Shown: positions 1-49,815 of the stretch, piece by piece | Numbering within the stretch: the first letter of the stretch is position 1 | Layout of the letters: each line of letters begins with the position of its first letter | Source: Escherichia coli | GTDB taxonomy: Bacteria > Pseudomonadota > Gammaproteobacteria > Enterobacterales > Enterobacteriaceae | NCBI RefSeq assembly: GCF_003019035.1 | Contig: NZ_CP027447.1 | Length of the DNA stretch: 64,000 bases | Strand: one strand, 5' to 3' | Translations under genes and position numbers: made by a program | Notes under the pieces: generated by a model | Database searches by the model: none | The model's input: only the letters and a program-made list of their open reading frames with translations | What the model was told of the DNA's origin: nothing

Positions 1-518
<518 letters not shown>

Positions 519-610: not shown

Positions 611-712
611 AACCGCAGGCACGTTGTATGCAAGAACGTGCTGTGGCTGGCTGGTGAACTTCCAATAGTGCGAATATTGAATGATTTCTATCTGTTATAG
701 ATTTTACCGTAT
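611..712. repeat. Conserved ~100-bp element, copy A (homologous to 5170-5268)
   Basis: About 75% identity to copy B. Hairpin CACGTT(620-625)/AACGTG(635-640) around loop GTATGCAAG; copy B has compensatory changes in the stem. Confidence 0.4.
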
Positions 713-947
713 TTCGGCATGAATGAAACTGAATATCCTCCCACCGATTCTCCATGACTTTACGCCACTGTCTCTAGGGCTGCTATGTGCCAGAGGCGGA
801 CGTTGTTAAAATAGAAAATATCCCAACCTTGTATGAGTCGTGCAATAATTTCGAACTTTATACAAAGCTTTGGTTGTAAAGGTGTATAACCACAAGTGAC
901 ATTAATCACATTTGTAAAGGCAAAATGCAACAAACTGAATTAGTTAA

Positions 948-1133: not shown

Positions 1134-2969
1134 GTGAAACGACTACAATCATTAAAAGAAGCAAAAACAAAACCAGACTTGGCTAAGCTATTAGGAATCA
1201 AACCTTCAGCGTTAACATACTGCCTATATGTATTAAAACCTGAAAATCAATACACACAGTTTAAGATACCAAAAAAAAATGGCGGCGAACGGATAATAAG
1301 TGCACCTAACGGAATATTAAAGACGATACAGTCATCCTTATCAAGACTGCTTCTAGATTGCTTAGACGAAATAGTTTGCATTAAGTTTCCAGACTCAGAG
1401 TTAGCAAGGCAGAAAGCAAAAAACTCAAAAATATTAAAGTTAAAATGTTCCAACTCAGAAATCAAACAACCCTCACTGTCTCATGGATTTGAAAGAAAGC
1501 GTTCAATTATTACAAATGCAATGATGCACTTGGGGAAAAAATATGTTTTTAATATAGACTTGGATAATTTTTTCGGCAGTTTTAACTTTGGTAGAGTCCG
1601 AGGTTTTTTCATAAAAAATAGAAACTTTGCACTCGATCCGGAAATCGCAACTGTAATTGCTAAAATTGCGTGCTACAACAATGAACTACCCCAAGGCAGC
1701 CCATGCTCCCCAGTAATCACTAATCTAATCACTCACTCGTTAGACATTAAACTGGCAGCGATTGCATCAAGAAACTCATCCACTTTTACAAGATATGCTG
1801 ATGATATTACATTCTCTACGAGGAAGGGGGAGTTTCCTTCTGCTATAGCAAAAAATCAAAATGGTAAATATATCGTTAGTAAGAAAATTAGGGGCGAGAT
1901 AACTCGCTCAGGTTTTATAATTAATGATGGGAAGACAAGAAATCAGTATAAAGACTCGAGGCAAGATGTAACAGGCTTAGTGGTTAATAAAAAGCCAAAC
2001 ACGAAAAAAGAATATTGGAGGCTTGTGCGTGCGCAATGTGACCATTTATTTAAACATGGTGAGTTCTTAGAGGTGATTGACGGCAAGGAAATAAAGGGGA
2101 ATGTTAATACCCTTGCAGGCAAACTTAACTTCATAGACCAAGTTGACCACTATAATAGATTGCGTCAAGGCGAAAAATTAAATCCAAAATATCACTTAAA
2201 AAAAGATGCCAATAAAAATGGCCATGCCAAAAAAAGGCGTTACTTACATAGTTCTAGAGAAAAAACGTTTAGTGAGTTTCTCTTCTATCGTTTATTTTAT
2301 GGCAATGAATTACCAACAATTCTTACGGAAGGTAAAACTGACAATATTTATCTGAAGGCAGCAATACATAAGTTAGCCTCATCATTCCCTAATTTGGCGG
2401 TCGCTGAAAGTCCAGGGCTCTCTTATAAGCCACGGACTAAATTTGTTAACTACAATGAGCGGACAAAATATTTACTTGAACTTTATGGTGGTGCTGATTA
2501 TTTAAAGGATTTTGTTATTCATTATAAACAACACTTTAATCGTTATAAGGCTCCCAAACCATCTAATCCAGTAATTATACTTGTTGATAATGATAGCGGA
2601 CCAAAAGATCTGATTAATTACGTTAGTAAAGTTGATAATATTGGTATTTTCCCCACAGGTGTTCCAGATATCCGCGCCTCTGAGTTTGTACATATTTTTT
2701 GTAATCTTTATTTAGTGCTTACCCCTCAAGTTAAGGGATATACAGGAACTGATATAGAGCATTTTTTTAAAGATGCAGATCGACTTAGACCACATAAAGG
2801 TAAGTTTTTCAATACAGTCTCTAAGCGTGATCATGATAATGATTTGAGCAAGGAATCTTTCGCAACTCATATTGTTCATGCCCACAAGCATGAAATTGAT
2901 TTTAGTGGATTTACAAGCCTGTTAGAACGGTTAGTAAAAGTCATAAATCACTTTGACACTGTTAAGTAA
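1134..2969 (+). CDS. Retron-type reverse transcriptase fused to C-terminal TOPRIM-like domain (611 aa)
   Basis: GTG start with GAGG 9 nt upstream. RT motifs: KKNGGERIISAP (aa 47-58), NAxxH as ITNAMMH (aa 126-132), IDLDNFF (aa 141-147), LPQGSPCSP (aa 185-193), YADD (aa 221-224, nt 1794-1805), VTG (aa 280-282). C-terminus: ILTEGKTD (E399, nt 2328-2330) and ILVDNDSGP (D485/D487, nt 2586-2594), the Glu plus DxD pattern of TOPRIM. Visibly AT-rich relative to flanking core genes. Confidence 0.8.
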   Translation: MKRLQSLKEAKTKPDLAKLLGIKPSALTYCLYVLKPENQYTQFKIPKKNGGERIISAPNGILKTIQSSLSRLLLDCLDEIVCIKFPDSELARQKAKNSKILKLKCSNSEIKQPSLSHGFERKRSIITNAMMHLGKKYVFNIDLDNFFGSFNFGRVRGFFIKNRNFALDPEIATVIAKIACYNNELPQGSPCSPVITNLITHSLDIKLAAIASRNSSTFTRYADDITFSTRKGEFPSAIAKNQNGKYIVSKKIRGEITRSGFIINDGKTRNQYKDSRQDVTGLVVNKKPNTKKEYWRLVRAQCDHLFKHGEFLEVIDGKEIKGNVNTLAGKLNFIDQVDHYNRLRQGEKLNPKYHLKKDANKNGHAKKRRYLHSSREKTFSEFLFYRLFYGNELPTILTEGKTDNIYLKAAIHKLASSFPNLAVAESPGLSYKPRTKFVNYNERTKYLLELYGGADYLKDFVIHYKQHFNRYKAPKPSNPVIILVDNDSGPKDLINYVSKVDNIGIFPTGVPDIRASEFVHIFCNLYLVLTPQVKGYTGTDIEHFFKDADRLRPHKGKFFNTVSKRDHDNDLSKESFATHIVHAHKHEIDFSGFTSLLERLVKVINHFDTVK

Positions 2970-3230: not shown

Positions 3231-3298
3231 TGATGTGGTGGGACGTGTGAGCGCAGTGTTGATGGGGTAATGCTTTGAATTAGAAGCGGATTCTTATA

Positions 3299-3344
3299 AT
3301 TCGTAATGCGAAGGTCGTAGGTTCGACTCCTATTATCGGCACCA
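3299..3344 (+). pseudogene. thrW: 3' fragment (46 nt) of tRNA-Thr(CGU) thrW; island att junction
   Basis: ATTCGTAATGCGAAGGTCGTAGGTTCGACTCCTATTATCGGCACCA matches the anticodon loop (CGT), T-arm and acceptor 3' strand with CCA of thrW as I recall it. The 5' half (GCCGATATAGCTCAG...) is absent, so this is not an intact tRNA gene. Confidence 0.7.
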
Positions 3345-3707
3345 TTTAAATCAATAAGTTATCTCACATTTAAGTAAACTACGTTCTCCTCTTGTGCCTT
3401 TGATTTTGCTCGCGTGCGCGGTGAAATGCCTGACTGAAAGGTGAGCATATCGACGAACCATTTCGAGAGTTTCCCATCTGCTCATTTTTAAGTGCAAGCA
3501 GGAAAACACCGGACTAAACCAATCAGCTGTTCGAAAATGGCAAGCGGATTAATATGCCATGGCGGGGCAGCTTTGAGCCGCACGCATGGGGTGTGGCAAG
3601 CCTGATGGATTTTGCTGTGCCTGTGGTGGCGTGTTTGCTGGTTTGGCTGTTGGTTAAACGCGAAAGTCATAATGCCAGGGGAATACCGCAGGGTGTTCAG
3701 GTTTTGC

Positions 3708-3941: not shown

Positions 3942-4556
3942 ATGAATATATTTGAACAAACTCCACCGAACCGCAGACGTTATGGTCTTGCTGCATTCAT
4001 TGGGCTGATTGCTGGCGTTGTTTCCGCATTTGTGAAGTGGGGGGCTGAAGTTCCATTGCCGCCACGTAGCCCGGTGGATATGTTTAATGCAGCGTGTGGT
4101 CCGGAATCATTAATCAGGGCTGCTGGGCAAATTGATTGCTCCCGTAATTTTCTCAATCCTCCGTATATTTTTCTTCGAGACTGGCTGGGGCTGACAGATC
4201 CCAATGCGGCTGTTTATACCTTTGCCGGGCATGTCTTTAACTGGGTTGGTGTTACGCACATTATCTTTTCGATAGTGTTTGCTGTCGGTTATTGTGTGGT
4301 CGCTGAAGTATTTCCAAAAATTAAACTCTGGCAGGGCTTACTGGCAGGTGCTTTAGCCCAACTTTTTGTTCATATGATTTCATTCCCTCTCATGGGACTG
4401 ACGCCACCTCTGTTTGATCTCCCGTGGTATGAGAATGTTTCTGAAATTTTTGGACATTTAGTCTGGTTCTGGTCCATTGAAATTATTCGCAGAGATTTAC
4501 GAAACAGAATTACTCATGAGCCAGACCCTGAGATCCCTTTAGGCTCAAACAGATAA
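3942..4556 (+). CDS. yagU: Inner membrane protein YagU (DUF1440)
   Basis: 204-aa [28 protein letters not shown]..., recognised as YagU; hydrophobic segments. Confidence 0.9.
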
Positions 4557-4570
4557 TGCATTGAATGATA

Positions 4571-4600
4571 AAAATGGCGCAAATACAGCGCCATTTTTAT
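4571..4600. terminator. Bidirectional intrinsic terminator between convergent yagU and ykgJ
   Basis: Stem ATGGCGC(4574-4580)/GCGCCAT(4588-4594), loop AAATACA, flanked by A-run upstream and T-run downstream. Confidence 0.5.
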
Positions 4601-4805
4601 AGGTTAAAAACATTGTTTTTAACTTTCTGATGGCAGATAGCCAGTGAGTACATCGCGCTACTTCAGGATGCTGTAGATCCGGAGAACACTATAGAGGAAG
4701 AGGCATTGTTGCTGGCAGATGGAAGAAGTTTCGGGTTTTGTTATCCCTGAAAAACGAAGCCCCGCGATTATAGCTGGCGGGGCAGTGCAATTAATTATTG
4801 CATAT

Positions 4806-5135
4806 TTATAACGGTGTCAGCCCGTATTTAGCTCTTGCACGATTGCAAGCCTCATTGACGACTCCGTTCTCACCAGACATGGCGAATTCTCTGCACGTGG
4901 AAGATCGATTTTTATATATCGTGCAGCAGGCATTTTTGCCCGGTGTTCCTGCAAGGGCAATACATCGGGGGTTTTTCTGATTGGTACCGCTCATGCATCG
5001 GTGAAAAGGGGATATTTGTTCAGTGAGCCTGGCGGGAATGGTACCGCCAGCATCGTCGGCTTCGGCCCAGTAAAAAGAGACGCGGAAAAATGCACAACAG
5101 GCACCACACGTCATGCATGGATTCAGATTGCTCAT
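4806..5135 (-). CDS. ykgJ: YkgJ, putative zinc/iron-chelating (ferredoxin-like) protein
   Basis: 109-aa [20 protein letters not shown]... with CxxCxxCC motif. Confidence 0.85.
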
Positions 5136-5169
5136 AATTCACCAGTACAGCTATAAATCGTAAAGAGAA

Positions 5170-5268
5170 CTGCGGTACGTCGTATGCAGGGACGTATCGC
5201 GGTTGGCTGGTGTACTTTCGATAGTGTGAGTATTGAATGATTTCCAGCCGTTACCGATTTTACGTCCT
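5170..5268. repeat. Conserved ~100-bp element, copy B (ykgJ-ecpE intergenic)
   Basis: Hairpin TACGTC(5176-5181)/GACGTA(5191-5196) around loop GTATGCAGG, followed by GGCTGGTG...ATAGTG.GA.TATTGAATGATTTC shared with copy A. Confidence 0.4.
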
Positions 5269-5447
5269 AATTAGTGAAGAAACCACTCGTTAGCAGGCCG
5301 CCTGGTACCTTTCCGTGTCTCCTGAACACTATGGTGTACATATGAGAAAGCTCATCGTTACAGGTGACATTGACGATCGCTTCCACATCATTTAAACGAT
5401 TTTTGAGTCTCTGAGGTGGAATTCTTCCCTCGTCCGATGGATAAGTC

Positions 5448-6158
5448 TTAGTCCGCCGAAGGGGGCTTAGCAGGACAGGAATCGCTAATCTTAATGAATT
5501 TGTCGTTATAGACCAGATAATGATTCCCCGGCTGACGTAACTCAGGCTGATGAACCACGTCTCCCGGACGTAGATACCAGGCGTCGCCTTCCTCTTCGGT
5601 CGAATCACATCCTGGTTTAATCAGTAGCTTAAACCACGTGTTGCCGGTGTTACTTACCGTTCCTGTCACCTGGTCGAAGGACCATTTAAACTGAACCTGA
5701 CGTGGTCGTACTACCAGAATGGTATCCATCACCACCACCGGCTCCGTGCTGACCTCACCGCCGGTTGGGCTGCGTTTTGTCAGGTTACGAGTGGGGACCT
5801 CGCGAAATGAGACCCGGTAGTAGCGCTCGCGGTTATCCCGTGGACCATGATAGTAAAATTTAAAATACTCGCTCTCACCAGCCTGCAACGCCAGCTGGCG
5901 GGGGGCGAAAAGCAGTTCACCATCCACCGGTCGGGTGCGCAATTCACTGCTGCCCGGGCTATCAATAGCACTGATGGCAATACGGTATATCCGTGCGCTT
6001 TTGTTGTTATTCACTACACGTTTGCTGACAAAGTCAGTCTCGGACGGCAGCGAAAATGTCAGATTGCCGACCGAAATCGCCTGTGTCAAAGGTGCCGACA
6101 GCATACAGACCGCTGTCAGCAGGGCCTTAGTTAATGTTACGCCACGTCGCCTGAACAT
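5448..6158 (-). CDS. ecpE: E. coli common pilus chaperone EcpE
   Basis: ORF 5448..6203; start set at internal MFRRRG to give the 236-aa length I recall for EcpE. Signal peptide present. Confidence 0.85.
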
Positions 6159-7770
6159 GAATTTCTCCTGAAGCGCTGACTTCGCCAAACCAGCCGTTAT
6201 CATCTACCGTACGCAGCGAAATGGCGTTATCCATTGGAATCGAAAATTTGACTGTGGTCTTATCCATCTGCCCCACTTCGCCAGAGATATCAGTCCACGG
6301 TGTAGTCAGCCACAGCGCATCGGTCATATCCCGCCAGCTATCATCGCACCCGGCATCGTAGGTTTTTGTAGCTCCGTTGCGGGTAATAAAGGAAAGCGTC
6401 GCCGGGAACGGTACTTTCGCCTTACCGTCATCGGAGCTGAGGACACAATAGGAGCGTCCGCCAATCACCTGCGCGGGTCCGGTCACCTTGATCAGCACTT
6501 CGTCGGCAGCTGTTTTACCGCTGGTGGTTACGATATAGCCGAAATCGAGTGCCGACTCGCCGCTGCCAACATATCCCTCCCGCGACGGTGTCTGAGTATA
6601 TTCATCGGAGATAATACTGATGCTGAAATCACGGGGTTTGATAATCAGCGTGTTGGAGGTAGAAAATTCATACCAGCCAGACTCCGGTGATGTGGTGTTC
6701 TGAAAGCGAAAGTTGAACAGATCTTTGGTGTTGATATCGCTGATCCCAAGGTTCACCATTTGCTTAAAGAAGTTGCTCGAGAAGAAAACATAGATCGAGT
6801 CTGCGCTCTTCATCTCGTTGAAGGTGTAGTAATAGGCGGTATTGCTCACCGGTTTCCATGAACTGCCATTCAGACTGAACTGCATATCGTACGCCCCGAC
6901 GGCCGAGGCTAACGACGAGTTGGCGATCGCCGGGAAGATATGGATTGAGGTGTTGCTGAGCCCGTTTGTTTGCAGGGTATAGTTAACCATCTTACAACTT
7001 AATCCTGAACGGCTGCCGATGGTTTGCGTCCGGCAGTCGGCGTTCCCTTCGCCCAGAGTCGGAACTCCGTCGCTGTTGATAAATACTTCCGCCAGCGAGT
7101 GGGTATTTATCAACCGCAGATTTGCTGCTTTCGTATGGGTGACGTTGCGAACATACCAGTTGCCGGAGGCCTGATCCTTACAGCGTGCGCCGCTGCTGGC
7201 ATCATAGTTCACAGAGGTCTGGCAGGCATTGATGGTCATTGTAAAGCTGCTGCCGACGGGCATTTGTTGCAGATACTGGTAAAACGCGTCTGACAACATG
7301 CCGTGCATCCACTTCGCGCCGCCGCTGGTCACCGTCGCGCCATAAAATCCACTGGCGTCGGTGGTTTGCGGCAGGATAAGACTGGTGGTCATATTACACC
7401 CAGCGTACCAGTTGATGCAGCGCAAGCCAGTTAAAGGAGATGAAACTGGTGAATTTTCCAGCCACATATCAAACTTCCAGTTGGTATAAAGGCCGGTGTT
7501 GTAACCGTTATCAATGTAGCCGAGGCTTTGCTGATAGATGGTTCCTGAACCATTGTATTTTAAACCGGTCCAGCGGTTGGCACCGGTCAGGCGCGGATCC
7601 AGCGCCCCGCCAGGAGTGACGAAAAAGTTGTCGTCTGAGTTGTTTTCGACAAACACAAACTCGCGTGCCGGAGCATCCGCCCAGGTTGTTTTGCTCACTG
7701 CCGCTCTGAGCGCGGTTGCAGGCCAGATTAGCGCAAAGATTATCATCGCTATCAGTAGGTTAACTCTCAT
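6127..7770 (-). CDS. ecpD: E. coli common pilus tip adhesin EcpD
   Basis: 547-aa ORF with signal peptide, in the ecp operon order. Confidence 0.9.
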
Positions 7771-13757: not shown

Positions 13758-14667
13758 TATAAAGATACATGCTCATCCGGATCATTTCAACACCCAATCC
13801 CTGTGACTATTTGTGGGATGTGGAATTTCCGCAACGGGGAAGTCTGAAATTGTTAGCAGCCATTGGCGACGCTCCCATAAACGCCTGGATGAGTGATTGA
13901 TGATGGTTTCGCTGAGAGTATGGATTTTTCGAGAATGGAGGCTATCTCCACTTTACTGGCCGATGATTTATCGCAGTTTGATTGATTACCTGACAGCGTA
14001 TATTCCTCTCCCACGGATATAATAATTACTTACAAAAAAGGGAGAGGATGCATATTTTAAATATCACTGAAGTGAACAGTTTATTGCCGTTATTAATAGA
14101 AATGGAGAAATAAATAGGCGTATTCTACAATTGCGACAAAAACAACGATATTAATCAGTTTATGACTGATTTGCTGTACTTTATTCTCTTTCATTGGTAC
14201 TTCCTCGCTTTAAAAAAGAGTGCACTTCGTAAGTGCCCTTATATAAATAACGAGTTTGGTCAACCAATTTTTTGACATGTATCACAAATTTGAATAGATG
14301 TATTACATCGGCTATCTTTTATTGCCCCAACGTCATTGATATATGTCGCCTGAAGTCAGTTCCGGGAATGAGTCTGATCTCAAGATTGGCCCAGCCCTGG
14401 CGTTGATTGGCGCTGAGGAGCATATCGCATCTCATCGTAATGTCGTATCTCCTGGGGTGTTATACAAGATATCGTTGTAGGTAACCAGGGAGAGGAATTG
14501 AGTTCTATTAAACCGTCAACTATGCCGGATACATACTGGATTACACTGCAGGCACGCCTTACGAGAGAACGTGCCGCAGTGACGGGTTAATTATCTGAAA
14601 GAATTTGTGAGGCTGTATCGGTTACTCATTGGTTTGATAGTTTTACTCTCGGGAGAGTAATAGATAT

Positions 14668-16054: not shown

Positions 16055-16975
16055 TTACAAATGTGTTTTATAAAAAGGAATTAATTTGTCGAGTGCCTGT
16101 TTCACAGGTTCTGGCTTATCATACAGGTCGTAATGTGAATAACCTTCAACCACGACCAGCTCTTTATGTTTTGAGGCAGCGCGGCCAATAATTTCGCAGC
16201 CGTCACGGTAGGCACCAAATGCGCCCACTCTATCGCCCACCACAACCATTATTGGTTGAGTTAACAGGACTTCTGCAAGATGAAATGCATCCCAACCCAC
16301 GGCAACAGTCTGATGTGAGAATAGCGAACGATTTACCCCATTAGGTGCACAGCCTCGTGGCGAACGATAATATTCTGTTGCTTCAAAAAGGTCTATTTCT
16401 GTTAATCCCGCTTCAAGAGCTGCTTCCGGAGAAGAAGGGAGCAAATCATCTACGCGAAGTTTTGCGCCGTTAGCTTCGTCTGTTCTTTGTTGCGCCATTG
16501 CTTCGAGTGCTCCGATAGGATTAAACGCTGTAAATCCCTCACGCATAAGACGCCCGTAGTTTGCACCCGTGACAGTACCAATAGCTTTAATTCGACGTTC
16601 TGTCATTGCGGCATTAATGGCATATCCACCTCCACCACAAATACCCAGTACACCAATACGCCCGGCATCAACGTAAGGTAAGCTGGTAAGATAATCAACG
16701 ACAATGCTGAAGTCTTTTACTCGCATTGTTGGATCTTCCAGATAACGCGGTTCTCCACCGCTGCTTCCCTGAAAACTGGCATCAAAAGCAATGACGATAA
16801 AGCCAGCTTTTGCCAGGGCGGCACCATACACACTACCCGATGTCTGTTCTTTGCAGCTTCCAATTGGATGGGCGCTGATAATGGCAGGATACTTTTTTTC
16901 ACTATTAAAATCGTCAGGGAAATAGATATCAGCAGCTATATCCCAGTAAGTATGTTTTATCGAAACAGTTTTCAT
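16055..16975 (-). CDS. Alpha/beta hydrolase, dienelactone-hydrolase-like
   Basis: 306-aa ORF; nucleophile elbow with cysteine (GICGGGG) as in dienelactone hydrolases. Confidence 0.65.
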   Translation of the reverse strand: MKTVSIKHTYWDIAADIYFPDDFNSEKKYPAIISAHPIGSCKEQTSGSVYGAALAKAGFIVIAFDASFQGSSGGEPRYLEDPTMRVKDFSIVVDYLTSLPYVDAGRIGVLGICGGGGYAINAAMTERRIKAIGTVTGANYGRLMREGFTAFNPIGALEAMAQQRTDEANGAKLRVDDLLPSSPEAALEAGLTEIDLFEATEYYRSPRGCAPNGVNRSLFSHQTVAVGWDAFHLAEVLLTQPIMVVVGDRVGAFGAYRDGCEIIGRAASKHKELVVVEGYSHYDLYDKPEPVKQALDKLIPFYKTHL

Positions 16976-21614: not shown

Positions 21615-24600
21615 ATGTCACGTTATAAAACAGGTCATAAACAACCACGATTTCGTTATTCAGTTCTGGCCCGCTGCGTGGCGTGGGCAAATATCTCTGT
21701 TCAGGTTCTTTTTCCACTCGCAGTCACTTTTACCCCAGTAATGGCGGCACGTGCGCAGCATGCGGTTCAGCCACGGTTGAGCATGGGAAATACTACGGTA
21801 ACTGCTGATAATAACGTGGAGAAAAATGTCGCGTCGTTTGCCGCAAATGCCGGGACATTTTTAAGCAGTCAGCCAGATAGCGATGCGACACGTAACTTTA
21901 TTACCGGAATGGCCACCGCTAAAGCTAACCAGGAAATACAGGAGTGGCTCGGGAAATACGGTACTGCGCGCGTCAAACTGAATGTCGATAAAAATTTCTC
22001 GCTGAAGGACTCTTCGCTGGAAATGCTTTATCCGATTTATGATACACCGACAAATATGTTGTTCACTCAGGGGGCAATACATCGTACCGACGATCGTACT
22101 CAGTCAAATATTGGTTTTGGCTGGCGCCATTTTTCAGAAAATGACTGGATGGCGGGGGTGAATACTTTTATCGATCATGATTTATCCCGTAGTCATACCC
22201 GCATTGGTGTTGGTGCGGAATACTGGCGTGATTATTTGAAACTGAGCGCCAATGGTTATATCCGGGCTTCTGGCTGGAAAAAATCGCCGGATGTTGAGGA
22301 TTATCAGGAACGCCCGGCGAATGGCTGGGATATTCGTGCTGAGGGCTATTTACCTGCCTGGCCGCAGCTTGGCGCAAGCCTGATGTATGAACAGTATTAT
22401 GGCGATGAAGTCGGGCTGTTTGGTAAAGATAAACGCCAGAAAGATCCACATGCGATTACCGCTGAAGTGAATTACACGCCAGTGCCTCTTCTGACCCTGA
22501 GTGCCGGGCATAAGCAGGGCAAGAGTGGTGAGAATGACACTCGCTTTGGCCTGGAAGTTAATTATCGTATTGGCGAACCCCTGGAAAAACAACTCGATAC
22601 AGACAGCATTCGCGAGCGTCGAATGCTGGCAGGCAGCCGCTATGACCTGGTTGAGCGTAATAACAATATCGTTCTTGAGTATCGCAAATCTGAAGTGATC
22701 CGTATTGCTCTGCCTGAGCGTATTGAAGGCAAGGGCGGCCAGACGGTTTCCCTGGGGCTTGTGGTCAGCAAAGCAACTCACGGTCTGAAAAATGTGCAAT
22801 GGGAAGCGCCGTCTTTGCTGGCCGCAGGCGGAAAAATTACGGGGCAGGGCAATCAGTGGCAAGTGACGCTCCCGGCTTATCAGGCAGGCAAAGACAATTA
22901 TTATGCGATTTCAGCGATTGCCTACGATAACAAAGGCAATGCCTCGAAACGTGTGCAGACAGAAGTGGTTATTAGCGGAGCTGGTATGAGCGCCGATCGT
23001 ACGGCGTTAACGCTTGACGGTCAGAGCCGTATTCAAATGCTTGCTAACGGTAATGAGCAAAAGCCGCTGGTGCTGTCTCTGCGCGACGCCGAGGGCCAGC
23101 CAGTCACGGGCATGAAAGATCAGATCAAGACTGAACTAACCTTCAAACCGGCTGGAAATATTGTGACTCGTACCCTGAAGGCCACTAAATCACAGGCAAA
23201 GCCAACACTGGGTGAGTTCACCGAAACTGAAGCAGGGGTGTATCAGTCTGTCTTTACTACCGGAACGCAGTCAGGTGAGGCAACGATTACTGTTAGCATT
23301 GATGGCATGAGCAAAACCGTCACTGCAGAATTGCGCGCCACGATGATGGATGTGTCGAAGTCTACCCTGAGCGTGAATGAACTCTCAGGAGACGTGGTTG
23401 CTGATGGTCAGCAATCCCACACGCTGACGCTTACTGCGGTGGATACTGATGGTAACCCGGTGACGGGAGAAGCCAGCCGCCTGCGACTTGTTCCGCAAGA
23501 CACTAATGGTGTAACCGTTGGTGCCATTTCGGAAATAAAACCAGGGGTTTACAGCGCCACGGTTTCTTCGACCCGTGCCGGAAACGTTGTTGTGCGTGCC
23601 TTCAGCGAGCAGTATCAGCTGGGCACATTACAACAAACGCTGAAGTTTGTTGCCGGGCCGCTTGATGCAGCACATTCGTCCATCACACTGAATCCTGATA
23701 AACCGGTGGTTGGCGGTACAGTTACGGCAATCTGGACGGCAAAAGATGCTAATGACAACCCTGTAACCAGCCTCACGCCGGAAGCGCCGTCATTAGCGGG
23801 TGCTGCGGCTGTAGGTTCTACGGCATCTGGCTGGACAAATAATGGTGATGGAACATGGACTGCGCAGATTACTCTCGGCTCTACGGCGGGTGAATTAGAC
23901 GTTATGCCGAAGCTAAATGGACAGGATGCGGCAGCAAATGCGGCAAAAGTAACCGTGGTGGCTGATGCATTATCTTCAAACCAGTCGAAAGTCTCTGTCG
24001 CAGAAGATCACGTAAAAGCCGGTGAAAGCACAACCGTGACGCTTATTGCAAAAGATGCGCATGGCAACGCTATCAGTGGCCTTTCCCTGTCGGCAAGCCT
24101 GACGGGTGCTGCGTCTGAAGGGGCGACGGTATCCAACTGGACCGAGCAGGGCGATGGTTCCTATGTCGCTACGCTGACCACAGGGGGAAAGACGGGTGAG
24201 CTTCTCGTTATGCCGCTATTCAACGGTCAGCCAGCAGCCACCGAAGCCGCGCAGCTGACTGTTATTGCCGGAGAGATGTCATCAGCGAACTCTACGCTTG
24301 TTGCGGACAATAAGGCTCCGACCGTCAAAGCGACGACGGAACTTACCTTCACCGCGAAGGATGCGTATGGGAACCCTGTTAGTGGCCTGAAGCTCGATGC
24401 ACCAGTGTTTAGCGGTGCCGCCAGCACGGGATCAGAGCGACCTTCAGCAGGAAGCTGGACAGAGCAAAGTAATGGGGTCTACGTGGCGACCTTAACGCTG
24501 GGATCGGCTGCAGGCCAGCTATCAGTCATGCCGCGCGTGAACGGCCAAAATGCCGTTGCTCAACCACTGGTGCTGAATGTTGCAGGTGACGCTTCCCGGG

Positions 24601-49569: not shown

Positions 49570-49592
49570 CCTGCAAAGTGCGCGTTGTCTCT

Positions 49593-49766
49593 GCCGGATG
49601 CGGCGTGAACGCCTTATCCGGCCTACGGATGGCGCAAGAATCTGTAGGCCTGATAAGCGTAGCGCATCAGGCATTTGTCACCATTGCCGGTTGCGGCGTG
49701 AACGCCTTATCCGGCCTACGAGTGGCGCAAGAATTTGTAGGCCTGATAAGCGTAGCGCATCAGGCA
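49593..49766. repeat. Tandem REP/BIME elements between yahG and yahI
   Basis: Two near-identical ~80-bp units (49593-49672, 49687-49766), each an inverted pair of REP-like sequences (GCCGGATGCGGCGTGAACGCCTTATCCGGCCTAC ... GTAGGCCTGATAAGCGTAGCGCATCAGGC). Confidence 0.8.
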
Positions 49767-49815
49767 ATTTGGCATTGGTCATAACCCCATCACCCTCTGT
49801 AGCGGACATAACAAC

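Follow-up and report, generated by a model that had tools for sequence, protein, structure and literature searches.

The conserved element between ykgJ and ecpE in the 64,000-nt stretch of Escherichia coli DNA analyzed here (the window, to which all positions refer unless another sequence is named) is probably a module of prophage ends that combines a terminator for leftward transcripts with a block of recombination homology, and its copy at ykgJ would be the relic of such an end rather than a region controlling ykgJ. In substance, the element is already known, as it belongs to the same sequence family as the 96-bp “attB-in-PP_2”, which Nakamura et al. (PLoS Pathog 2021) described as the att sequence of prophage-in-prophage clusters (PMC8112680). 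Judged from its sequence and surroundings, the chromosomal copy most likely serves today as a terminator or insulator between the ecp operon and a dinI remnant on one side and ykgJ on the other, and in addition as a homology patch for recombination.

Two copies of the element in the window

The original prediction of two copies of a conserved element proved correct. In a repeat search of the window, 618-707 pairs with 5174-5263 at 79% identity over 90 nt, and a profile built from 95 family members matches 5159-5268 and 604-713 with E = 1.6e-31 each (nhmmer). A 22-mer taken from the hairpin had 0 chance matches in 100 shuffles. In plus orientation, the element consists of an A-rich stretch, a GC-rich hairpin (hairpin 1) and a block of ~60 nt (Table 1), an anatomy drawn from 87-95 unique variants of the family. 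On the coding strand, copy 2 precedes the ykgJ start by 35-133 nt and follows ecpE, which is where it had been placed. Copy 1 sits in a prophage remnant, flanked by a GIY-YIG gene on one side and a retron Ec67-family reverse transcriptase on the other, and its right flank continues to match phage lambda for ~120 nt beyond the block. Since the two copies are only 79% identical and enclose yagU and ykgJ, they do not form an attL/attR pair.

Table 1. Features of the two copies of the element and of their surroundings (window positions).
Feature	Position	Strand	Description	Basis
Copy 1 element	613-707			
Hairpin 1, copy 1	613-646		followed by TTTTTGAGACC on the minus strand	
Conserved block, copy 1	647-707			
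Right-hand extension of copy 1	708-830		shared with phage lambda 24,258-24,370; lambda-class right flank	sequence comparison
yagU	3942-4556	+		
IS009 RNA (Rfam RF02111)	4562-4763	+	191.7 bits	
tfa remnant	4627-4740	+	114 nt; ~77% identical to lambda tfa, tfaQ and tfaR	
ykgJ	4806-5135	-	downstream of the hairpin on the minus strand	
T-rich tract after hairpin 1, copy 2	5150-5169	-	5'-TTCTCTTTACGATTTATAGC	
Copy 2 element	5170-5263		between ykgJ and ecpE	
Hairpin 1, copy 2	5170-5202		stem 5170-5181 / 5191-5202, 12 bp	sequence and folds
Hairpin 1 loop, copy 2	5182-5190		GTATGCAGG	
Conserved block, copy 2	5203-5263		TTGGCTGGTGTACTTTCGATAGTGTGAGTATTGAATGATTTCCAGCCGTTACCGATTTTAC; imperfect dyad	
dinI-like remnant	5271-5428	-		tblastn and blastn against prophage DinI-like genes
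ecpE	5448-6203	-		

A family at the tail-fibre end of lambdoid prophages

A blastn search with window 5140-5300 against 5,426 complete E. coli genomes located the element at 16,499 places in 5,393 of them, with a median of 3 and a maximum of 10 per genome; K-12 holds three. The element was also matched in 197 phage records, lambda and Stx phages among them. When one genome per species was scanned for the exact pattern (100,044 species), matches were confined to Escherichia, besides tiny contigs that are probably contaminants. The comparison with other strains that had been suggested alongside the original prediction finds the element anything but absent from the ykgJ-ecpE spacer, as the arrangement ykgJ-element-ecpE is intact in 4,951/5,426 genomes (~91%). 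In the literature, a search for the literal sequence of the element gave no matches, and nothing was found on the lambda ea47-ea31 spacer.

The surroundings of the copies are diverse. The lambda copy (24,160-24,257) lies between ea47 and ea31, the Qin copy of K-12 between ynfT/ydfK and a truncated ydfJ, and that of a lambdoid prophage adjoining prfC between tail-fibre genes and a DinI-like gene. Copies in Stx phages have nleC or tail-fibre genes on one side and dinI on the other, and in Salmonella phage FSL SP-016 the element separates a gin fragment from the dinI-family gene msgA. The commonest right neighbour is a minus-strand DinI-like gene (82 aa), which comes within 10 nt of the block in 50/112 contexts and typically has its stop codon about 4-7 nt from it. 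On the left, 50 of 117 contexts have a plus-strand gene, coding for a tail-fibre assembly protein (Tfa), a Pin/Gin invertase, a tail fibre or a lipoprotein, that ends between -15 and +35 nt from the hairpin. The element therefore sits where converging genes meet at the tail-fibre end of lambdoid prophages, a region in which effector genes and other cargo collect. In IMG/VR contigs of prophages of the dinI class, the element is often situated 298 nt from the end of the locus, a distance that fits dinI plus an att site.

Taken together, the element may be viewed as a module of the tail-fibre (b-region, attR-proximal) end of lambdoid phages, placed where rightward late, tail-fibre or invertase genes would meet leftward accessory genes, mostly dinI-like ones. 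Its hairpin would act as an intrinsic terminator for the leftward strand (minus in the window) and could provide a stable 3'-end structure for rightward transcripts, with the block lying between the dinI stop codon and this terminator. As the block is carried by many otherwise different prophages, it would at the same time constitute a shared homology patch, via which flanking cargo could be exchanged and prophages could insert into one another.

The ykgJ-ecpE locus as a probable decayed prophage end

The chromosomal copy bears the same neighbourhood in degraded form. Window 5022-5328 aligns with Sp15-type prophage ends at 84% identity over 309 columns, and 5345-5428 with the 5' half of dinI. 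The dinI remnant retains its stop codon (5271-5273), 7 nt from the block, and the C-terminus VQETRKGTRRPANEWFLH in front of it; its upstream part is degraded. Beyond ykgJ, the tfa remnant marks the left part of the relic; it lies within the IS009 RNA, i. e. EcsR2 in the yagU-ykgJ spacer (Raghavan et al. 2015, PMC4350180). IS009/EcsR2 is hence a neighbouring non-coding feature of the same relic, but it differs in sequence, lies across ykgJ from the element and is not a copy of it. The tfa remnant, ykgJ, the element and the dinI remnant follow one another as at a lambdoid right end, which identifies the supposed core-genome copy as an old prophage relic. Thus, the distinction originally drawn between a core copy and an island copy stands insofar as both copies exist, but the former is itself phage material, and the two are merely two of ~16,500. 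The relic tfa-ykgJ-element-dinI probably became fixed beside the ecp operon.

Nakamura et al. propose a transfer from the chromosome to phages (PMC8112680). Several findings speak instead for a phage origin of the chromosomal locus, namely the tfa and dinI remnants, the ykgJ-like genes that adjoin the element in some prophages (full-length at 81% identity, or truncated in several forms) and the copies of the element carried by lambda and by a Salmonella phage, though exchange in both directions is possible. For annotation, this would mean that the ykgJ-ecpE spacer, ykgJ and IS009/EcsR2 are best read together as one decayed lambdoid prophage end and not as native core regulatory DNA.

A comparison of this strain with K-12 gives identities of 98.5% for ykgJ, 98.1% for ecpE, 93.5% for the dinI remnant, 96.7% for the block and 84.4% for the hairpin. 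With 96.7% against 93.5%, the chromosomal block is not clearly more constrained than the adjacent pseudogene; the chromosomal hairpin, by this measure, appears to change fast.

The hairpin as a putative leftward terminator

The conservation of structure that had been noticed in the two copies holds for the family as a whole. Within hairpin 1, whose loop usually reads CGTATGCAAGA, 89.8% of the cells of the stem alignment are paired and compensatory changes occur in 8 of 11 pairs, a level reached by 0/500 shuffles. The hairpin is under structural selection. The stem comprises 12 bp in copy 2 and 11-13 bp in relatives, with a mean free energy of about -17 kcal/mol on either strand. Counts of G.U against A.C in the stem are about equal and indicate no strand preference.

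A strand is indicated by the sequence that follows the stem. In the 10 nt that follow the hairpin, the family has a mean of 5.5 T on the minus strand vs 2.5 on the plus strand, and at least five T are found in 31/49 cases on the minus strand vs 1/49 on the plus strand. This T-run on one strand only is characteristic of an intrinsic terminator that acts on minus-strand transcripts, and it is present in both window copies (minus strand: TTCTCTTTAC in copy 2 and TTTTTGAGAC in copy 1). The early suggestion of a terminator-associated structure downstream of the ecp operon is thus supported, as the T-run occupies the strand that codes for ecp and ykgJ. Hairpin 1 of copy 2 and the tract at 5150-5169 are presumed to form the intrinsic terminator of transcripts arriving from ecpE and the dinI remnant. 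At this locus, the hairpin would end or attenuate transcription leaving ecpE and may so insulate ykgJ.

The element shares several properties with the intrinsic terminators of convergent genes, namely a GC-rich stem of 10-13 bp with compensatory changes, an A-rich tract on one side that equals a T-run on the minus strand, and a location directly after stop codons on both strands. It differs from them by a long loop (9-11 nt) of conserved sequence, by the lack of a plus-strand T-run and by the attached 60-nt conserved block. A terminator consensus scan of 4700-5700 and 300-1200 flagged neither window copy, because their loops of 9-11 nt exceed the loop limit of the scan (8 nt). In copy 2, two G.T pairs on the plus strand turn into two A.C mismatches on the minus strand, where the hairpin reaches -12.5 kcal/mol vs -22.7 kcal/mol on the plus strand, and the minimum-energy fold of the minus strand favours another pairing.

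That other pairing bears on an alternative explanation, in which the element is a leader, attenuator or operator of ykgJ with a conserved 5' region and a terminator hairpin that gates read-through. The order on the minus strand, i. e. block, hairpin with T-run and, 35 nt further on, ykgJ, would suit such a device. Moreover, ykgJ-like genes follow the element in several prophages, and in the minus-strand fold of copy 2 GGACGUA (5260-5266) pairs with the 5' arm of the terminator (UACGUCC, 5191-5197) in an antiterminator-like manner. As this pairing exists in this strain only, it is here alone that a minus-strand fold lacking the terminator hairpin is predicted; it requires strain-specific bases (TCC instead of the consensus GTG at 5264-5266). 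At most copies, however, other genes or convergent gene ends follow the element, the block displays neither covariation nor strand bias, and no Rfam cis-regulatory family matches. Neither a constant association with one gene nor conserved alternative structures, as expected of a cis-regulatory leader, were found, and a promoter scan yielded no promoter-like minus-strand site for ykgJ. Control of ykgJ by the element is therefore highly improbable. The same applies to the original proposal of a ykgJ leader or operator or a site for a shared regulator, which does not agree with an element that adjoins dozens of unrelated genes. Nor is the element specific for ykgJ: genes of many kinds are found next to it, a ykgJ-like gene follows only a minority of copies, and the chromosomal copy is embedded in prophage remnants.

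As side observations, both K-12 and the prophage consensus deviate from this strain in the GGACGUA bases. The start region of ykgJ (5124-5150, minus strand; ACUGGUGAAUUAUGAGCAAU), which is outside the element, appears by eye to be complementary to the core of RyhB (AUUGCUCA ... CCAGU), and ykgJ has been listed as a RyhB-repressed target (Wang et al. 2015).

The conserved block

That the 60-nt block is nearly invariant is not accounted for by a terminator alone. The family consensus of the block is GGCTGGTGAACTTTCGATAGTGCGAGTATTGAATGATTTCCAGCCGTTACCGATTTTAC, of which the central ~40 nt hardly vary, and the flanks of the element become unrelated on one side right at the hairpin base and on the other just past GATTTTAC. 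At the centre, 7-bp inverted arms (TTCGATA and TATTGAA) enclose a 7-bp spacer (GTGCGAG); in copy 2, the imperfect dyad consists of these same arms with a 7-nt centre between them. Hairpin variants travel together with the left flank and variants of the 3' end of the block with the right flank. Two further helices are predicted within the block on the plus strand (GGCTGG/CCAGCC and TTCGATA/TATTGAA). These helices 2 and 3 were rejected, with G.U about equal on both strands and only 3 compensatory cases, and among the family variants the block pairings show no consistent covariation or strand bias.

That the block might encode a small protein was considered as well. Candidate frames are a plus-strand one (...LAGELSIVRVLNDF...), minus-strand ones (RKIGNGWKSFNT... 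or VKSVTAGNHSILAL...) and the peptides of 9 and 18 aa initiated in the hairpin loop. In some genomes, a PGAP “capsid protein” pseudo-fragment is annotated under the block in the plus-strand LAGELSIVRVLNDF frame, and 84 of 95 variants keep one of the minus-strand frames open. Yet the substitutions lack a three-base periodicity, most classes have no start codon, the plus-strand frame of copy 2 carries a stop codon, and none of the frames matches PHROGs or NCBIfam. The ATG in the loop of both copies and the tiny ORFs that start from it, with 18 aa (MQGRIAVGWCTFDSVSIE) and 9 aa (MQERAVAGW), are present as first reported. These peptides vary in length and sequence between copies, match neither PHROGs nor NCBIfam families and lack codon periodicity, in line with the earlier view that they are incidental. 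A coding function of the block is accordingly scarcely credible.

Two minor observations concern the block. At the right end of the K-12 prophage Rac (locus L127, 4230-4269), hairpin 1 is kept and the block is swapped for an unrelated sequence, which lies ~190 nt before the annotated prophage end. Furthermore, the block starts with GCTGGTGT in copy 2 (5206-5213) and with GCTGGTGA both in copy 1 (650-657) and in lambda (24,199-24,206), octamers that are one base off the Chi octamer GCTGGTGG. Since the last positions of this octamer are among the most variable ones of the family, it is probably not functional.

Recombination and the relation to attB-in-PP_2

The attB-in-PP_2 sequence is located at the effector-exchange, tail-fibre end of prophages, where other lambda-like phages have inserted (PMC8112680). 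It is homologous to the ykgJ/ecpE intergenic region with ~81% identity over 96 bp, and in Sp15 and six other prophages the homology extends to 309 bp at 84% (PMC8112680), which corresponds to the alignment of window 5022-5328 described above. The 96 bp are duplicated at both ends of lambda-like prophages that are inserted into Stx1 and ydfJ prophages, and an ompW-type att of 121 bp remains intact beside the int gene of the inserted phages (PMC8112680). The published sequence and our element are not fully congruent. From the published segment lengths (184 + 96 + 29), the 96 bp would be expected at ~5206-5301, so that they would comprise the block and the 3' end of dinI without the hairpin. The hairpin, lambda itself, the chromosomal dinI and tfa relics and the near-universal spread in multiple copies are not addressed in the paper. 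Of the original idea of a sequence used for site-specific recombination, one part is hence supported by the literature, as the block region has been published as attB-in-PP_2 (PMC8112680), but mediation by an integrase is only a candidate mechanism.

In its strict form, this idea states that the block is a true site-specific site, i. e. the att core for the integrase of some lambda-like phages, with the crossover in the invariant centre. It can draw on the duplication of the 96 bp at both ends of the inserted prophages (PMC8112680), on the layout of arm, spacer and arm in the block centre, which is that of a tyrosine-recombinase core, and on the left and right variants that travel with their own flanks, which implies that exchanges fall in the invariant centre. 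Against this, the neighbours of the element do not consistently include any one integrase family, the limits of the 96 bp fall on those of the homology, and the spacer varies between copies (GTGCGAG vs GTGTGAG). In the phage records from the Nakamura study, the annotated att duplications of dinI-class phages lie beyond dinI. Given this position and the intact ompW-type att of the inserted phages, the 96-bp insertion may instead represent a Campbell-type homologous recombination via the shared sequence. Nearby integrases are Rac/IntS-like or lambda-like, each with its own att, and annotated att repeats are found elsewhere. Neither the adjacent cognate integrase nor the defined crossover of a tyrosine-integrase att site was found. 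A direct link to an integrase was tried and rejected, as no more than 33 genomes have an element-integrase junction, with a Rac/IntS-like integrase. On balance, a site-specific att core is an unlikely explanation.

A further variant, according to which the invariant centre is a dedicated anchor for some recombinase or is favoured by phage Red/Rad52-type recombinases, is improbable as well. If it applied, the lambdoid b region would serve as a hotspot at which cassettes of effectors, retrons and other defence genes are exchanged, and the ykgJ-ecpE copy would offer a chromosomal docking site in every E. coli. Our preferred reading, in which the block acts as plain homology, makes the element a nearly universal homology patch that is shared by lambda, Stx phages and, at the ykgJ-ecpE locus, ~91% of E. 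coli chromosomes. This patch would be situated where effector and defence cargo is swapped and where prophages stack into one another. Whether the exchange is homologous or site-specific would bear on the duplication of Stx phages and on the spread of effector loci.

Small RNAs at the hairpin

Another function could reside on the plus strand, if a small RNA included or ended at hairpin 1, as in Shigella CssrB or the Hfq-bound EcOnc47 of EHEC. In the window, such an RNA would be antisense to the ykgJ start, and in prophages its read-through would be antisense to the 3' end of dinI, comparable to IsrC/msgA, a convergent pair of Salmonella (Padalon-Brauch et al. 2008, PMC2330248). On the plus strand, CssrB (Rfam RF02799) aligns through its 3' end with the hairpin and the flank to the left of it. 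EcOnc47 is an Hfq CRAC peak in Sp15 of EHEC Sakai (Tree et al. 2014, PMC4104026), whose coordinates (“-” strand, 2,896,476-2,896,522 of an old genome version) land on the A-rich flank and hairpin of the Sp15 copy after an approximate shift of +128 to +146, calibrated on AgvB; its strand is equivalent to the plus strand of the element. Together, CssrB and EcOnc47 suggest that in relatives rightward transcription runs across the hairpin or stops there. In addition, the plus-strand fold of copy 2 is much the more stable one (-42.4 kcal/mol, z = -3.3).

These likenesses are partial, however. Both CssrB and EcOnc47 involve the A-rich left flank and hairpin 1 on the plus strand, but neither covers the block. 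The CssrB scores of 27.3 and 23.6 bits compare with a gathering score of 76, and only the region of the 3' hairpin aligns. EcOnc47 is not northern-confirmed and its mapping hangs on the estimated offset. IsrC and msgA are convergent with overlapping 3' ends (PMC2330248), and the order hairpin, block and dinI at the element resembles this layout of a convergent small RNA over the 3' end of a dinI-family gene; the likeness is one of layout only, as Rfam IsrC matches neither the window nor the copy of the Salmonella phage locus. Overall, Rfam searches of the window, the Sakai prophage end and the Salmonella phage copy at gathering and permissive thresholds returned at the element only the sub-threshold CssrB match and no IsrC, AgvB or AsxR. 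Upstream of the element, no promoter-like plus-strand site is found, the hairpin is not followed by a plus-strand U-run, and the left flanks are unrelated between the copies, so that there is no common RNA body. A small RNA is thus rather improbable as the function of the element.

Two further groups of small RNAs were set apart. The Pas sRNAs (Zhu et al. 2026 preprint) were considered as PasB is reported near IS009; by description, PasB is usually present as a single copy, found mainly in pathogenic lineages and located within structural operons, unlike the element. EcOnc22-24 (~85 nt, Hfq-dependent) were ruled out, as they are found between tail genes and not at prophage ends.

Other observations in the window

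Several further features lie around copy 1. On its right, 1134-2969 (plus strand) encodes a reverse transcriptase of 611 aa with a YADD motif and a C-terminal extension, which holds the place of lambda ea31/ea59; RefSeq names the identical gene of strain EC7 “retron Ec67 family RNA-directed DNA polymerase/endonuclease”. The retron msr/msd RNA is expected in the ~370 nt upstream (760-1130). To the left, 1-430 (minus strand) holds the 5' part of a gene with a LEM-3-like GIY-YIG domain that runs off the window start. In EC7, this gene is preceded by pinE and by baseplate and tail-fibre genes of an e14/Mu-like prophage. Further on, 3177-3222 matches the integrase-side flank of Rac-type phages, and 3290-3345 (plus strand; ending in ...GGTTCGACTCCTATTATCGGCACCA) resembles the 3' end of a tRNA gene, with no complete tRNA detected there by ARAGORN. 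This tRNA-like end is followed by a C-terminal integrase fragment (3351-3509, minus strand); 3290-3509 is probably the scar of the att site of another island.

A weak third match to the element profile (14540-14592, plus strand; E = 0.0018) is limited to the hairpin part (ACTGCAGGCACGCCTTACGAGAGAACGTGCCGCAGT). It is located between ykgM and an oxidoreductase gene, has no block after it and may be an unrelated terminator or a relic. Two sets of repeats lie elsewhere in the window. At 49592-49769, two tandem 85-nt repeats are 94% identical, one of which matches Rfam naRNA4 (REP/BIME-type). The direct repeats at 23739-24388, with a period of ~306-309 nt, probably encode repeated domains in a large gene.
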